Positions 20,908-32,349 of a DNA stretch of 64,000 nucleotides are shown one piece after another (within the stretch, counting starts at the first letter, position 1; every line of letters starts with the position of its first letter). The stretch spans positions 20,807 through 84,806 of the forward strand of contig JAGOSC010000002.1 in assembly GCA_018062515.1 (NCBI GenBank). Direction: 5' to 3'. The stretch is from Candidatus Omnitrophota bacterium. GTDB taxonomy: Bacteria; Omnitrophota; Gorgyraeia; Zapsychrales; Zapsychraceae. The notes below the pieces were generated by a model that was given only the letters and a program-made list of their open reading frames with translations, searched no databases and was not told the DNA's origin. The position numbers were made by a program, and so were the translations under genes.

Positions 20908-21566
20908 AAACAGCGACGGTGAAGCAAATCCAAAAGTTGGATGCGCTCGCCATCAATCAATATGGTTTTCCGTCGCTGATTTTAATGGAAAATGCCGGGC
21001 GCCGGGTATTTGAAGAAATACAAAAAAAGTTTCGTCCGGCTAATATTGTGATCATTTGTGGGCATGGAAATAATGCTGGCGATGGATTGGTGATAGCCCG
21101 TCATTTTCACGAGGCCGGTATTAAAACTCAAGTGGTACTCGTCGGTCAAGCCAAACAGCTTAAGCCAGATGCATTAGTTCATTATCAGATTCTGAAACGA
21201 CTGAAATATTCAGTTAAAGAAATATCGAATGTGTCGACGAGTTTTTTGACGGTGATCAAAAATGCTGATGTTGTCGTAGACGCTATATTTGGAGTCGGCT
21301 TAAATCGTAATATAACTGACCCCTTTAAAAGTTTTATTGAAGCGATTAATCATCAAGCAAAAAAAATCGTGGCTGTTGATATTCCATCCGGATTGGATGG
21401 TACAACGGGACAAATTTACGGCGTTTGTATAAAAGCCGATTTAACGGTAACATTCAGTTTTGCAAAACAAGGTTTTTATCGACGCTATGGTCCTCAGCAT
21501 ACAGGGAAAATTGCGGTGGTTGATATAGGAATTCCGGGTAAGCTTAAAAGTAAAATAATTAAATAA
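20904..21566 (+). CDS. nnrE: NAD(P)H-hydrate epimerase (YjeF N-terminal domain)
   Basis: LMENAGR plus ICGHGNNAGDG motifs of YjeF-N; 220 aa, so the epimerase domain only. Confidence 0.7.
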   Translation: MKTATVKQIQKLDALAINQYGFPSLILMENAGRRVFEEIQKKFRPANIVIICGHGNNAGDGLVIARHFHEAGIKTQVVLVGQAKQLKPDALVHYQILKRLKYSVKEISNVSTSFLTVIKNADVVVDAIFGVGLNRNITDPFKSFIEAINHQAKKIVAVDIPSGLDGTTGQIYGVCIKADLTVTFSFAKQGFYRRYGPQHTGKIAVVDIGIPGKLKSKIIK

Positions 21567-21570
21567 TGTT

Positions 21571-22233
21571 ATGCCTGTAACGAATCGAAATATTGACGTT
21601 GTCATCGGAAAAATAAGAACGCAAATGAAAGATTTGCCTGATCCGTCGGTGACTTTGGTGGGAAAGAAATGGAAAAGTCCGTTTTTAGTGTTGATTTCCT
21701 GCATTATGAGTTTACGGACCAAAGATGAAACAACGCTTCCAGCATCGGAACGATTGTTTAAACTGGCTAATACACCGGAAACGATGATCAAATTGACGCC
21801 GGGGCAGATTGAAAAAGCGATTTATCCCGTCGGATTTTATAAAACAAAGGCCAAGACCATTCTCGGTATTTGTAAAGATATTATCGAGAAGTTCGATCAT
21901 AAAGTTCCTGATGATCTCGATACATTGATGACGATGAAGGGTGTAGGGCGAAAAACCGCTAATTTGGTTTTGACCGAAGGATTTGACATTCCAGCTATGT
22001 GTGTTGATACGCATGTTCATCGTATTTCAAACCGTTTCGGTTATGTGGAATCCAAATCGCCAGAAGAAACGGAATGGGCCTTAAGAAAAAAGTTGCCTAA
22101 AATATACTGGAAAGACTATAATGCGCTTTTGGTTACGTGGGGACAAAACGTTTGCCGGCCCATATCGCCTTTATGTTCACAATGTAGCGTTAATCAACAT
22201 TGTGCAAAAATAAATGTAACAACGAGTCGATAA
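21571..22233 (+). CDS. nth: endonuclease III (HhH-GPD DNA glycosylase with a 4Fe-4S cluster)
   Basis: HhH-GPD segment LMTMKGVGRKTANLVL and a Cx6Cx2Cx5C cluster at the C-terminus. Confidence 0.8.
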   Translation: MPVTNRNIDVVIGKIRTQMKDLPDPSVTLVGKKWKSPFLVLISCIMSLRTKDETTLPASERLFKLANTPETMIKLTPGQIEKAIYPVGFYKTKAKTILGICKDIIEKFDHKVPDDLDTLMTMKGVGRKTANLVLTEGFDIPAMCVDTHVHRISNRFGYVESKSPEETEWALRKKLPKIYWKDYNALLVTWGQNVCRPISPLCSQCSVNQHCAKINVTTSR

Positions 22234-22311
22234 AAACCACACATACATTTATTATATGTATTGTTGAAATTATTTCTCTAATAGTGTATTTTAAAGCTCT
22301 AAACTAATCCC

Positions 22312-23360
22312 TTGGAAAAAAAGATGAAAATAGGAATCACCTACGATCTGAAAACAGATTGGGTCAAGAAAGATGCTGACCCGACGGACATCAACGCGGA
22401 ATTTGATAAGCCCGAAACCGTGGATATGATTGTGGCTGCTATTGAAAGTGGCGGACATCAAGTCAAGCGCATTGGCAATATTCATCAGCTTATTAAGAGT
22501 GTTAAAGAACTGGATGTAGATTTTATTTATAACATGTCCGAGGGAAAAACCGGCCGTAACCGCGAATCACAAGTTCCGATCATTCTTGAAATGAATAATA
22601 TTCCTTATTTCGGAGCGGACGCTCTGTCATTAGGCATAACATTGGATAAATTGTAGCCAAACAAATTTTTATGGGCGAAAAAATTCCCACCGCGCCATAT
22701 TTTCGAGCTCAATCGACGGATAATTTAGAAAAATTAAATACAATCGGTTTTCCTTTGATCGTTAAAACAAAGCACGAAGGTTCATCTAAAGGAATCAATA
22801 AAGATTCGCGCGTTGAAAACTTTGAGGCTTTAAAACGGCAGGTTGAATTTATTAACCGGACTTATCAGCAGCCCGCTTTGGTCGAAAAATTTATTTCCGG
22901 AAAAGAATTTACGGTTGCGGTTTTAGGTAATCAGTCGCCGATGGCCATGCCGGTGGTTCAGATATGTATTGATGGTGAAGAAGAGTTGAATGAACGGATT
23001 TATACGAATGAACGGATTTATTCCGCTGCACTCAAATATTTATGTCCAGCGAGAATCAGTCCTGAATTAACGAAAAAAATTCAGGAAATTGCTGTGCATG
23101 TTTTTAAAGCGGTTGATTGTTGTGACGTAGCGCGAGTCGATTTTCGTGTCGACAAACAAGGTCAACCTTATGTTCTGGAAATTAATCCTTTGCCGACCAT
23201 GGATAAAGAAGATGTGTTCCACGTGTTTCCTAAATTGTTTGGGCTTGATTTTAACGGAATTTTAAACATAATACTAAATATAAGCCTGGCCCGGTACGGC
23301 CTTATTGATCAAACAGAACAAGAATTGCTGAAACCTTTTCATCAGGAGATAAATGTTTAA
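22312..23360 (+). pseudogene. D-alanine--D-alanine ligase-family ATP-grasp gene split into two ORFs by an apparent -1 frameshift near 22651-22656 (real pseudogene, recoding, or a 1-nt assembly error)
   Basis: ORF 22312-22656 encodes a Ddl N-domain ending in ...LGITLDKL*. Frame 0 continues directly as VAKQIFMGEKIPTAPYF..., which matches the Ddl DKxxTK...IPTAPY junction. The second ORF (22671-23360) is a full ATP-grasp domain. Confidence 0.55.
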
Positions 23361-24529
23361 TGAATCCTTTGGGTGCCATTGACCAAGAATTAGAAATTTC
23401 TCGCCTACCGCTTACGGCTCAAGAAAAAAGAGTCTTGGAGGCTTTTGACGGTGCGACGGAAGCCGATTGGCATGATTGGCGTTGGCAAATCCGTAATCGT
23501 ATCCGTAGTAAAGAGATTTTGGAAGGTATTGTCCATTTAACAAAAAGAGAAAAAGACGGTATTGTCGGCTGCGGAAAAAAATTGACGATGGCCATCCCGC
23601 CTTATTTTGCCGCTTTGATTAATCCGGATGATCCAGCCTGTCCCATTCGTTTGCAAAGTATTCCTCAAGTCGATGAATTAACAACAGCGCCTGAAGAAAT
23701 GGCTGATCCGTGTGGAGAAGATAAAAATTCACCGATTCATGGACTCGTCCATCGTTATCCAGATCGCGTTCTTTTCCTCGTTAATGAAATGTGTGCCATG
23801 TATTGCCGATATTGTACGCGTTCAAGAATGGTCGGTGATGGTGAACGTTCCCTCAGCATGGAATCTTATCAAAAAGCCTTTCAATACATTCGCGCTCACA
23901 AAGAAATTCGTGATGTTTTAATCTCCGGCGGCGATCCTTTAACTTTAAGTGACCGCGTGCTCGAACACATTATCCAAGAAGTAAAATCCATCGAACACGT
24001 TGAATTTGTGAGAATCGGAACAAGAATACCGGTTACCTTGCCTCAACGCGTCACACCTCAATTAATCAGCATGCTGAAAAAATATAGTCCAATTTGGATG
24101 AGTATACATTTTAATCATCCGGACGAAATAACTCCACGTGTCAAACATGTCTGCAATATGATCGCAGATGCCGGAATTCCCATGGGAAGTCAGACAGTTT
24201 TATTAAAAGGTATTAATGATCATCCGGAAACGATGAAGAAATTGATGCATGAACTTCTAAAAATCAGAGTACGTCCATACTATATTTATCAATGTGATCC
24301 GATTTTAGGATCAAAACATTTTAGAACGGACGTCGCTACTGGAATTAATATTATGGAACATTTAAGAGGACACACGACGGGATATGCCGTTCCAACGTAC
24401 GTTATCGATGGGCCCGGCGGCGGCGGAAAGATTCCGATTTCACCGAATTATTTAGTGAAGAAAGAAAAGAATAAATACACCTTACGTAATTTTAAGAATG
24501 ATGAATTTTATTATCATGACCCTGAATAG
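23360..24529 (+). CDS. lysine 2,3-aminomutase-family radical SAM enzyme (KamA family)
   Basis: CAMYCRYCTRS (CxxxCxxC) and KamA-family flanking sequence. The start ATG overlaps the upstream stop (TAATG), indicating translational coupling. Confidence 0.8.
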   Translation: MNPLGAIDQELEISRLPLTAQEKRVLEAFDGATEADWHDWRWQIRNRIRSKEILEGIVHLTKREKDGIVGCGKKLTMAIPPYFAALINPDDPACPIRLQSIPQVDELTTAPEEMADPCGEDKNSPIHGLVHRYPDRVLFLVNEMCAMYCRYCTRSRMVGDGERSLSMESYQKAFQYIRAHKEIRDVLISGGDPLTLSDRVLEHIIQEVKSIEHVEFVRIGTRIPVTLPQRVTPQLISMLKKYSPIWMSIHFNHPDEITPRVKHVCNMIADAGIPMGSQTVLLKGINDHPETMKKLMHELLKIRVRPYYIYQCDPILGSKHFRTDVATGINIMEHLRGHTTGYAVPTYVIDGPGGGGKIPISPNYLVKKEKNKYTLRNFKNDEFYYHDPE

Positions 24530-24545
24530 GTATCGGAGCGTTTAA

Positions 24546-24848
24546 ATGAAGAAGTTAGAAATTATTGTTAGAGAAGAAAAATTTAACGCGGTGATTGAAG
24601 TTTTGGAAGATTCCGGCATCGGCGGACTAACTGTTACCGAAGTTAGAGGTTTTGGAAGGCATCGAAATGGCCTTCAGCCAAAAAGAAAAATTGATATTTA
24701 TGTAGATGAGTTTCAGGTAGATAAAGTGGTTGAAATGGTGCGGCATGTGGCCAAGACAGGATTTACCGGAGATGGTAAGATTGCGGTTCTTCCTCTAGAT
24801 AATATTATAAAAATCCGAACCGGGGAAGACGGCGCTTTAGGTATTTGA
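24546..24848 (+). CDS. P-II (GlnB-like) family signal-transduction protein with shortened T-loop
   Basis: B-loop TGFTGDGKIAV and C-terminal IRTGE match GlnB. The T-loop region RGFGRHRNGLQPKRK is ~12 aa shorter than the canonical one and lacks the Tyr51 equivalent. Confidence 0.7.
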   Translation: MKKLEIIVREEKFNAVIEVLEDSGIGGLTVTEVRGFGRHRNGLQPKRKIDIYVDEFQVDKVVEMVRHVAKTGFTGDGKIAVLPLDNIIKIRTGEDGALGI

Positions 24849-25005
24849 TATAAGTGTTTTATTTTCAATGATTTATAACATTTTAGAAAATTATCATTTT
24901 GACAAAGATCAGTACGGAAAAATCCTTTACAATTTTTCAATCTCGTATATAATACATCCTCACGATTGAAAAATATTAACGGATAAAGGTAGGTGAATAC
25001 ACCCG

Positions 25006-25164
25006 ATGATCGAAGTCAAAGTCAATGATAATAACAGTTTTGAAAAAGCCATGCGAATTTTTAAAAAAGCCTGTCAAAAAGACGGCTTTATGATGGAATT
25101 GAAAGATAGACGTTTTTACAGCAAGCCTTCTGAAAAGAAACGTTTAAAAGGCAAAATTTATTAA
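25006..25164 (+). CDS. rpsU: 30S ribosomal protein S21
   Basis: 52-aa ORF MIEVKVNDNNSFEKAMRIFKKACQKDGFMMELKDRRFYSKPSEKKRLKGKIY, which matches the S21 pattern. It is missed by the ORF track because it is below the 60-aa cutoff. AGGTG lies 10 nt upstream. Confidence 0.8.
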   Translation: MIEVKVNDNNSFEKAMRIFKKACQKDGFMMELKDRRFYSKPSEKKRLKGKIY

Positions 25165-25217
25165 TTTAAATGATTATTTGCGGTCTTTCAAAATAATTAC
25201 CTTAAGGGACGCAGTTA

Positions 25218-25760
25218 ATGCGTCCCTTATTTATTTCTGAGGAAAATATGCCCAAATCAATTGCGTTATTAGTCGAAGACCAATATCAAGTCCTTGAAGT
25301 CTGGTACCCTTGGCTGCGTTTAAGAGAAAATGGTATCGATGTTCAATTCATCGGATCCGGAACAAAGAATGTTTATGGCAGCAAGGAAGGATATCCGGTC
25401 AAAGCAGATAAATCTATTGCTGATGTTCGCGCTGATCAATTTGACGGCGTGATTGTCCCCGGCGGGTTTGCCCCGGATTTTATGCGCCGGGTTCCGCGCA
25501 TGGCCCAGTTTGTCCGTGAAATTTATGATCAAAATAAAATTGTCGCGGCGATTTGTCACGGAGGTTGGATGCTGGTTTCCGCGGGAATCCTAAAAGGCAA
25601 AAAAGCGACCAGTTTTTTTGCGATTAAAGATGATTTGATTGCGGCTGGCGCAGAATGGTCTGATCAAGAAGTTGTGGTGGATCGAAATCTTATCACTGCA
25701 CGAAAACCGGAAGATTTAACCGCCTTTACCGTTGAAATCATTAAACAATTAAAAATATAA
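25218..25760 (+). CDS. DJ-1/PfpI-family protein
   Basis: Nucleophile-elbow AICHGG and overall PfpI layout; 180 aa. Confidence 0.75.
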   Translation: MRPLFISEENMPKSIALLVEDQYQVLEVWYPWLRLRENGIDVQFIGSGTKNVYGSKEGYPVKADKSIADVRADQFDGVIVPGGFAPDFMRRVPRMAQFVREIYDQNKIVAAICHGGWMLVSAGILKGKKATSFFAIKDDLIAAGAEWSDQEVVVDRNLITARKPEDLTAFTVEIIKQLKI

Positions 25761-31198: not shown

Positions 31199-32332
31199 AT
31201 GAATCAGGCGAGAATCGCAATTTTTGTAATCTCCATAATGGCGATACCCGTTTTTGCTTTGGCAGAAACATTGACCATGACAACGTATTATCCTTCCCCT
31301 TTTGGTGTCTATCAATCATTAAGGTTGGCTCCCAACGCTTCAGCGCCAGCTTGCAGCGGTTCGACGACCGGAACGATGTATGTAGATACGTCAAATATAT
31401 TACAATATTGCGATGGAACATCCTATTCAACTATCGGTGAATGGATTTTAAGTGGAACGGATCTTTATCCTCGATCTTATGAGGATGCGAATGTCGGGAT
31501 AGGAACCAACGAACCAGATGCGAAATTGCACATATTTAGTGATACTGACCCAACCGCTATCCGAATACAAACTGGTCTTTTGCCTTCCTGGGAATTACAA
31601 GCTAATGACACAAATCCTCAGAAAGGATTTTCTATTTGGAGTGAATCTGTAGGAACGGTTTTGTCCATTTTACCCGCATCTGGAGGACTGGTTGGTATTC
31701 AAACAACCACACCTTCATCGGCATTGGAAGTGAATGGAGATATTGAATTAGAAGACAATTTGATTTTTAACGGAGTAACTCCAATGATTTCCACAACACA
31801 AGCTGATTTATCTGTAGTCCCGAGCAGTGGCTTTAGCCTTCGGGCCGACCTTAGTGGAAGAGGTCGGTTTTACGTTTATGATGGGGATGTGGGGGATCAT
31901 TTATTAACAGTTGATCAAACGACCAGACGCGTCGGAATCTTGAATGAGGCGCCGACATCGGAATTAGATGTTAATGGGACTGTTACGGCCATCAGCTATT
32001 TGTATGCTTCGGATGCTCGTTTTAAAGAAGATTTTAAACCAGTTTTAGGATTAGACGGCATTATGCAGTTGGAAGGTTTAAGTTATACCTGGAAAGAAAA
32101 TGGCAAACATGATATTGGAATCACCGCCCAGGATGTGGAAAAAGTTTATCCGGAATTGGTGTATACGGATGAAAAGTCCGGTAAAAAATATGTGGAATAC
32201 GGTAATTTAATTGCGCCGATGATCGAGGCCATTAAGGATCAGCAAAAATTAATTGAGTATCAAAACGCAGAAATTGATGCATTAAGGAAAGAATTCCATC
32301 AAATGAAGCATGATATGGATTTTTTGCGTTAA
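31199..32332 (+). CDS. exported tail-fibre-like protein with C-terminal intramolecular-chaperone (peptidase S74) domain
   Basis: Signal peptide; NVGIGTNEPDAKLHI-type tail-fibre repeat; C-terminal SDARFKEDFKPV...LSYTWKE...GITAQDVEKVYPELV pattern of the self-cleaving chaperone of endosialidase/tail-spike. Confidence 0.6.
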   Translation: MNQARIAIFVISIMAIPVFALAETLTMTTYYPSPFGVYQSLRLAPNASAPACSGSTTGTMYVDTSNILQYCDGTSYSTIGEWILSGTDLYPRSYEDANVGIGTNEPDAKLHIFSDTDPTAIRIQTGLLPSWELQANDTNPQKGFSIWSESVGTVLSILPASGGLVGIQTTTPSSALEVNGDIELEDNLIFNGVTPMISTTQADLSVVPSSGFSLRADLSGRGRFYVYDGDVGDHLLTVDQTTRRVGILNEAPTSELDVNGTVTAISYLYASDARFKEDFKPVLGLDGIMQLEGLSYTWKENGKHDIGITAQDVEKVYPELVYTDEKSGKKYVEYGNLIAPMIEAIKDQQKLIEYQNAEIDALRKEFHQMKHDMDFLR

Positions 32333-32349
32333 ATTTTAGGAGAAAAAAG

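Follow-up and report, generated by a model that had tools for sequence, protein, structure and literature searches.

Why does a gene for an ATP-grasp ligase of the D-alanine-D-alanine ligase (Ddl) type lie directly against a gene for a KamA-family aminomutase? The two genes, followed by a gene for a P-II family protein, occur in a 64,000-nt stretch of DNA from a Candidatus Omnitrophota bacterium (assembly GCA_018062515.1, contig JAGOSC010000002.1, positions 20,807 to 84,806 of the forward strand; hereafter the window). An earlier note had proposed that the ligase, here called G1, joins a beta-amino acid such as beta-lysine to a second molecule, and had placed the P-II gene in the same possible pathway. 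We find this interpretation partly supported. The family membership of the two enzymes, the conservation of their active sites, their linkage across phyla and domains and their joint loss lead us to think it likely that they form a two-enzyme module, in which beta-lysine is made and then joined in an amide by the ATP-dependent ligase.

The ligase-linked aminomutases are predicted to produce beta-lysine

The aminomutase of the window belongs to the KamA subfamily, as it scores 346.5 bits against the NCBIfam model TIGR00238 (cutoff 199.2), and its best NCBIfam match is the AblA lysine 2,3-aminomutase equivalog, at 503.1 bits with a cutoff of 525.4. The scores against the glutamate (475 versus 650), arginine (417 versus 600) and EpmB (246.7 versus 369.3) models are all well under their cutoffs. 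The near miss on the AblA cutoff is probably due to a shortened C-terminus: at 389 residues, the window protein is a short form and stops ahead of the CxCxxC region. It also has His at the position of C268, which, with C375, C377 and C380, we take to be a Zn-site cysteine of the clostridial enzyme. An orthologous aminomutase from metagenome-assembled genomes (MAGs) labelled 'Deltaproteobacteria' passes the AblA equivalog (532 bits versus 525). The window protein is 54% identical to the lysine 2,3-aminomutase of Clostridium subterminale (2A5H) over 364 ungapped residues, with a score of 478 bits.

We surveyed the active site in 117 ligase-linked KamA genes, that of the window and 116 relatives. 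The CxxxCxxC radical S-adenosylmethionine (SAM) motif (CAMYCRYC in the window), the equivalent of the carboxylate-binding R134 and the equivalent of D293 (YQCD in the window) are each present at 112 of 112 aligned positions. The pyridoxal phosphate (PLP)-binding lysine, K337, has its equivalent at 110 of 110 aligned positions, and D330 (IDGPGGGGK in the window) at 109 of 110, the exception being a gap. From the literature of the Frey laboratory, we take D293 and D330 to bind the epsilon-amine of lysine and to be Lys and Asn in glutamate 2,3-aminomutase. This retention of catalytic and lysine-binding residues by the window protein and its 116 relatives predicts a lysine 2,3-aminomutase with beta-lysine as its product, and it is in keeping with the earlier note, which had named the gene as one for a lysine 2,3-aminomutase.

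The ligase is Ddl-like but its substrate-site residues are replaced

As read in the window, the ligase gene is split into two fragments, of which the C-terminal one matches Pfam Dala_Dala_lig_C with 125 bits and the N-terminal one gives weak Ddl matches. The split is caused by a frameshift. The window reads GATAAATTG at 22644-22653, one A short in its A-run, where a 13.1-kb contig of the independent assembly SRR11088468 (L001, found by exact look-up of the KamA protein) reads GATAAAATTG. The missing A (L001 site 2456-2459) is the sole difference between the window and L001 over 13,110 aligned nt; the L001 ligase is a single intact gene of 345 aa, and orthologs with a complete reading frame have the normal length of about 330-390 aa. 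Because the frameshift is the lone difference from L001 and the orthologs are of normal length, it is best read as a homopolymer or assembly error, or else as a private, very recent variant. The earlier note had considered that a frameshift might disable the ligase in all relatives; the one seen here is shared by none of them. Between two public assemblies of one population, one homopolymer base makes the difference between an intact gene and what looks like a pseudogene.

The intact ligase protein scores at best 177 bits against a Ddl subfamily model with a cutoff of 243, is under every Ddl cutoff, and has no specific model of its own in NCBIfam or Pfam. A profile built from 25 ligase orthologs matched only Ddl/Van ligases in the PDB, at no more than 136 bits. 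Likewise, the AlphaFold2 model of the ligase (pLDDT 85, pTM 0.87) has Ddl structures as its top structural matches, at 22-25% identity and TM-scores of about 0.75-0.85.

We mapped the ligase residues onto the numbering of E. coli DdlB, and included G2, a ligase paralog that is 36-42% identical to G1 and is found beside it in many lineages. The residues that contact ATP and Mg2+ are invariant (the equivalents of K97, K144, E180, E187, R255, D257, E270 and N272), and the ligase should therefore be active, as far as these positions tell. By contrast, the equivalents of the D-Ala-site residues are replaced: H63 is E in G1, K215/Y216 are I/V-x and S281/L282 are D-V, while G2 has E, K-E and S-N at the same three sites. 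The GEDG loop of DdlB corresponds to GRNRES in the ligase, although the alignments of this loop and of E15 differ between two runs, and our reading rests on the robust positions only. Judged from these residues, the ligase is no true D-Ala-D-Ala ligase. G1, G2 and the ligases of 'Deltaproteobacteria' and Bathyarchaeia differ from one another at the equivalents of Ddl 215/216 and 281/282, which suggests that the partner substrate may differ between lineages.

The ligase and aminomutase genes are neighbors in distant lineages

A species-level genome scan yielded 80 loci, all from Omnitrophota or from 'Planctomycetales'-labelled MAGs with the same gene order. In 74 of these, KamA is the gene immediately 3' of the ligase, and in the other six the contig ends less than 3 kb from the ligase; the pair is adjacent in every informative Omnitrophota locus (74/74), with no counter-example. 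Across the genome loci the KamA proteins are 56-78% identical to that of the window, and in about half of the Omnitrophota genomes G2 is inserted between G1 and KamA and the flanking genes are different. The named homologs are all annotated as Candidatus Omnitrophota or Omnitrophica MAGs.

The linkage extends beyond this phylum. A metagenome scan used more distant ligases (35-50% identity), and loci were counted as informative if KamA was present or if at least 3 kb was available on both sides of the ligase; 34 loci were too short, and KamA is present in 43 of the 46 informative ones. The gene order differs between lineages. 'Deltaproteobacteria' MAGs (e.g. RBG_16_49_23) have a ligase, a PAS histidine kinase, a sigma54-type activator, a response regulator, KamA and a second ligase, while in Bathyarchaeia KamA precedes the ligase, and a further ligase gene often lies on the other strand (a locus of this type, L147, has an archaeal-type XPG/FEN1 gene nearby). 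The pairing that the earlier note saw in one genome recurs in Omnitrophota, in 'Deltaproteobacteria' MAGs and in Bathyarchaeia.

The two genes are also lost together. Two Omnitrophota loci, L169 and L170, have neither the ligase nor KamA in an otherwise syntenic slot, in which nth, the genes for an MgtE_N/CBS protein and an Nramp transporter, the P-II gene, rpsU, (DJ-1), purH, folC and mnmE are all kept. The pairing of ligase and KamA is far beyond chance, and because the linkage outlasts rearrangement across two domains of life and the two genes disappear jointly, there is strong evidence that they are a functional two-gene unit.

None of the other recurrent neighbors qualified as part of this core. 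Some genomes encode the MgtE_N/CBS protein and the Nramp transporter between nth and the ligase, and a HAD hydrolase, an AIR-synthase-like protein, an M20 peptidase, a PAC2 protein, a YchF C-terminal domain and an EF-G-like protein are clade-specific flanks.

Some loci have features of their own. In the 'Deltaproteobacteria' cluster (L130 7000-10266) the response regulator is a single-domain protein, and a sigma54-like -24/-12 box, TGGCACGGAAATTGA, with one mismatch, precedes the response regulator-KamA-ligase genes (L130 9811-9825; L133 9821-9835). The sigma54-type activator and this box hint, weakly, at regulated and possibly nitrogen-linked expression in these MAGs. A contig of Gottesmanbacteria, in the candidate phyla radiation, carries two convergent ligase-family genes (L149 5669-7727) and has no KamA within 5.7 kb upstream or 2.8 kb downstream; with the loci L124, L156 and L165 it shows that members of the ligase family can occur apart from KamA. 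In one Omnitrophota genome, an extra, unrelated ATP-grasp gene (PF14397, ATPgrasp_ST) lies between DJ-1 and purH, near the ligase, KamA and P-II genes (L167 6221-7369).

Fused relatives of the ligase are linked to S58 peptidases

An exhaustive search found 723 representatives of 50%-identity clusters of the ligase at E≤1e-30. Many of these are proteins of 650-730 aa in which two ligase modules are fused, from Myxococcota, Bdellovibrionota and 'Deltaproteobacteria'. In all three independent contexts, the fused double-ligase gene (676-724 aa; Myxococcota, Bdellovibrionota) is followed immediately by a gene for a Peptidase_S58 protein. The S58 family is that of DmpA and BapA, whose characterised members remove N-terminal beta-amino acids (PMC13344977). 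The association ties the ligase family to beta-amino-acid peptide chemistry in a suggestive but indirect manner; no S58 gene was found in the 80 Omnitrophota loci. We found no published description of a fused double ligase paired with an S58 peptidase. We also considered G1 and G2 as counterparts of the two halves of the fused myxobacterial proteins and rejected this, since both match the C-terminal half best, which indicates that the duplications were independent.

The proposed pathway and its alternatives

In the module that we propose, KamA would convert L-lysine to beta-lysine (3,6-diaminohexanoate). G1 would bind ATP, phosphorylate a carboxylate to an acyl-phosphate and join this to an amine, one of the two reactants being beta-lysine. 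The product could be a beta-lysine-containing dipeptide, an N-acyl-beta-lysine or a short oligomer, and in lineages with two ligases G2 might add a second bond. What we infer here is beta-lysine as the ligase substrate, the partner substrate and the physiological role; the most plausible role would be that of a cytoplasmic zwitterionic solute, by analogy with acetyl-beta-lysine, or else that of a nitrogen-rich reserve. A broader proposal is possible but on balance doubtful: that the ligase family makes a new class of beta-amino-acid peptides (beta-lysyl dipeptides or products of the oligo- or poly-beta-lysine type), widespread in Omnitrophota, 'Deltaproteobacteria' MAGs and Bathyarchaeia, and that the S58-linked relatives make the natural substrates, long looked for, of beta-aminopeptidases.

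Several observations weigh against a beta-lysine ligation module. The window's own ligase copy is frameshifted. The aminomutase is just under the AblA cutoff and is without the C-terminal Zn-site cysteines, and the specificity of the ligase cannot be read from its sequence. Synteny is generally high around the Omnitrophota locus (Era-YjeF_N-Nth ... PurH-FolC), so that adjacency within the phylum is weaker evidence than the raw count would imply. Three informative metagenome loci (L124, L156 and L165) have a member of the ligase family and no nearby KamA; the gene contexts of these three and of L149 are uninformative. KamA is also absent from the S58-linked fused-ligase loci. Since such relatives and the KamA-less loci exist, the ligase family has no exclusive tie to beta-lysine. 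Finally, the support for the pathway comes from sequence and gene context.

Among the alternatives, the one that survives best is a sub-case of the same module, in which the ligase acylates beta-lysine with a small carboxylate such as acetate, giving an N-epsilon-acyl-beta-lysine compatible solute and taking the place of AblB. There is precedent in methanogens, where the product of the gene beside ablA turns beta-lysine into an osmolyte (PMC1224877, PMC12776343). No acetyltransferase is found among the Pfam-scanned neighbors in the window, as this explanation would have it. However, the ligase has an acidic residue at the position of Ddl E15 (one of the alignment-dependent positions), where Ddl holds the carboxylate donor by its amino group, and this suggests an amino-acid donor rather than a plain acid; moreover, freshwater and groundwater are the source of many of these organisms, and a single acylation does not need two ligase paralogs. 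We consider this sub-case unlikely.

A second alternative is that a protein is the acceptor, with the ATP-grasp enzyme acting as an analogue of EpmA that places beta-lysine on elongation factor P (EF-P) or another protein. A KamA-family enzyme with an ATP-dependent ligase does mirror the logic of EpmB/EpmA, other ATP-grasp enzymes, RimK and LysX, modify proteins, and the module sits among era, rpsU and mnmE. Yet the aminomutase resembles lysine 2,3-aminomutase and AblA (503 bits) and not EpmB (247 versus a cutoff of 369), and neither the window nor any of the fetched loci contains an efp gene, epmA not having been searched for. Bathyarchaeia, which use aIF5A and not EF-P, have the pair as well, many lineages have two different ligases, and relatives of the ligase pair with an aminopeptidase family. 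We regard protein beta-lysylation as improbable.

We judge very improbable a role in cell-wall chemistry, by which the Ddl-like enzyme would make a peptidoglycan precursor or a cross-bridge that contains beta-lysine. The nearest characterised relatives of the ligase are indeed the D-Ala-D-Ala, D-Ala-D-Ser and D-Ala-D-Lac ligases, but the residues of the D-Ala site are not kept, loci with classified neighbors contain no linked mur, ddl or fem genes, and the pair is also found in Bathyarchaeia, archaea without murein. The least credible explanation, effectively excluded by the data, is that there is no functional link, adjacency being inherited synteny and the ligase a pseudogene in this strain: the window copy is frameshifted and the surrounding gene order is kept across the phylum, but apart from the frameshift the window and L001 do not differ over their shared sequence, three distant lineages keep the pair in other orders and with other flanks, and ligase and KamA are lost together.

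Organization of the locus in the window

The ligase, KamA and P-II genes are three tightly packed genes on the + strand between nth and rpsU (Table 1), and Pfam and NCBIfam confirmed the three families. For the ligase, the ATG at 22324 is the likely start rather than the TTG at 22312, based on orthologs and on the gene call in L001. Its TAA stop codon occupies 23358-23360, and the last A is the first base of the KamA ATG at 23360. The sequence statements of the earlier note (the TAATG overlap, an aminomutase with CAMYCRYCTRS, and P-II 16 nt further on) were all confirmed. The overlap that it read as translational coupling is present in the window, but the arrangement is not conserved: measured between the ends of tblastn matches, orthologous ligase and KamA genes lie a median of about 84 nt apart, with a range of 0-471.

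Table 1. Positions of the features discussed (window coordinates, except where a locus is named)
Feature	Position	Strand	Remarks
nth	21571-22233		upstream of the ligase gene
Ddl-like ATP-grasp ligase gene, G1	22324-23360	+	345 aa once one missing A is restored
Ligase open reading frame (ORF) pieces as read in the window	22312/22324-22656 and 22671-23360	+	frames one base apart
Frameshift site	22648-22650	+	AAA in the window versus AAAA in L001
TAATG stop/start overlap, ligase/aminomutase	23358-23362	+	direct sequence reading
KamA-family radical SAM/PLP aminomutase	23360-24529	+	389 aa, CAMYCRYCTRS; stop 24527-24529
Spacer, KamA/P-II	24530-24545	+	16 nt, with GGAG at 24535-24538 before the P-II start codon
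P-II family protein gene	24546-24848	+	100 aa, shortened T-loop
rpsU (ribosomal protein S21), small unlisted ORF	25007-25165		own sequence and Pfam-annotated orthologs in L167-L170
Fused ligase and S58 loci	L082 7001-10432; L084 7001-10198; L085 and L086 7001-10227		

By Pfam scan, the neighbors in the window are YjeF_N, Nth, the ligase, KamA, P-II and DJ-1, with PurH and FolC further downstream, and the module is set among the translation-related housekeeping genes era, rpsU and mnmE. A scan for promoters and terminators turned up nothing better than weak promoter consensus matches ahead of the ligase, and no terminator immediately 3' of P-II. A near-consensus promoter-like site (TTTACA, 16 nt, TATAAT; 11/12) lies ahead of rpsU, in the region 24926-25229, and a strong terminator-like hairpin follows rpsU at 25203-25229; these two features delimit the ligase-KamA-P-II unit on its downstream side. 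Upstream, no riboswitch for lysine or any other ligand was detected by an Rfam scan that covered 21500-25500. A few kb downstream, at about 31200-32333 of the window (L001 11008-12141), lies a gene whose 377-aa product has a Peptidase_S74 domain, which in phage tail-spike and endosialidase proteins serves as an intramolecular chaperone.

The P-II domain is genuine (PF00543, 75.7 bits versus a cutoff of 25; 94 residues over 102 model positions), but the protein is below the GlnB and GlnK equivalogs (71 and 68 bits versus cutoffs of 181 and 202). Its T-loop, GFGRHRNGLQPKRKIDIY, is by eye about 12 residues shorter than that of GlnB and is without the Tyr51 region. Nearly all proteins of the subfamily are 100 aa long, and those with names, including an entry that is 100% identical, all come from Omnitrophota. 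In the strain of the window, P-II is probably co-transcribed with the ligase and KamA genes. Its inclusion in the pathway by the earlier note did not hold: P-II follows KamA in only 15 of the 74 KamA-bearing Omnitrophota loci and keeps its position in L169 and L170, where the two pathway genes are absent. As it persists without the pair, P-II is part of the syntenic backbone, and no observation here links it to the pathway. In those two loci (L169 1974-5303; L170 2337-5303), P-II comes directly after the genes for the MgtE_N/CBS protein and the Nramp transporter, and it may regulate the Nramp transporter rather than the beta-lysine genes.

Significance and comparison with known systems

In the full-text literature we found no description of a KamA enzyme paired with a Ddl-like ATP-grasp ligase, and one apparent match, PMC11237513, proved irrelevant. 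This agrees with the view of the earlier note that the pairing lies outside the known uses of KamA enzymes that it listed; both enzyme families are well known, and it is their combination that is undescribed in the searchable literature. To our knowledge, beta-lysine has few roles, as an intermediate of fermentation, as the acetylated osmolyte of methanogens, in the modification of EF-P and as a building block of some antibiotics. The presence of the pair across a whole candidate phylum and in archaea implies a further, probably abundant, metabolite derived from beta-lysine. The module also gives a testable function to many proteins that are annotated 'D-alanine-D-alanine ligase' or 'ATP-grasp domain-containing protein' (723 representatives), and it offers a concrete, easily cloned target of two or three genes for finding the metabolite. 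The S58-linked relatives may point the way to the natural substrate of beta-aminopeptidases.

The closest parallel to the aminomutase is AblA/AblB of methanogens, which likewise places a lysine 2,3-aminomutase, alike in its active-site residues, beside an enzyme that derivatises beta-lysine. However, AblB is a GNAT acetyltransferase that uses acetyl-CoA, whereas the partner here is an ATP-grasp ligase expected to act through an acyl-phosphate, and the KamA protein is shorter at its C-terminus and just under the AblA cutoff. No adjacent GNAT acetyltransferase was found among the Pfam-scanned neighbors in the window or the scanned recurring ORF clusters of related loci. EpmB/EpmA similarly has a KamA-family aminomutase that feeds beta-lysine to an ATP-dependent, amide-forming enzyme, but EpmA is a paralog of lysyl-tRNA synthetase that works via an adenylate, EpmB forms a separate KamA clade, and the genes described here have no linkage to efp.

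The Ddl and Van ligases share with G1 the fold and the ATP/Mg2+ catalytic residues, and are its best structural and profile matches; they differ in that identity is only 22-25%, the substrate-site residues are replaced, and the linkage here is to KamA and not to mur genes. Cyanophycin synthetase and cyanophycinase, an ATP-grasp system for a non-ribosomal nitrogen-rich polymer with a dedicated peptidase, resemble the two-ligase and S58-linked layouts, although cyanophycin synthetase unites ATP-grasp and Mur-ligase domains in one protein, and the resemblance is one of gene layout. Carnosine synthase (CARNS1/ATPGD1) is eukaryotic and from a different ATP-grasp subfamily, and is compared here at the superfamily level only, but it joins beta-alanine to a second amino acid and thus provides a precedent for the chemistry that we propose.

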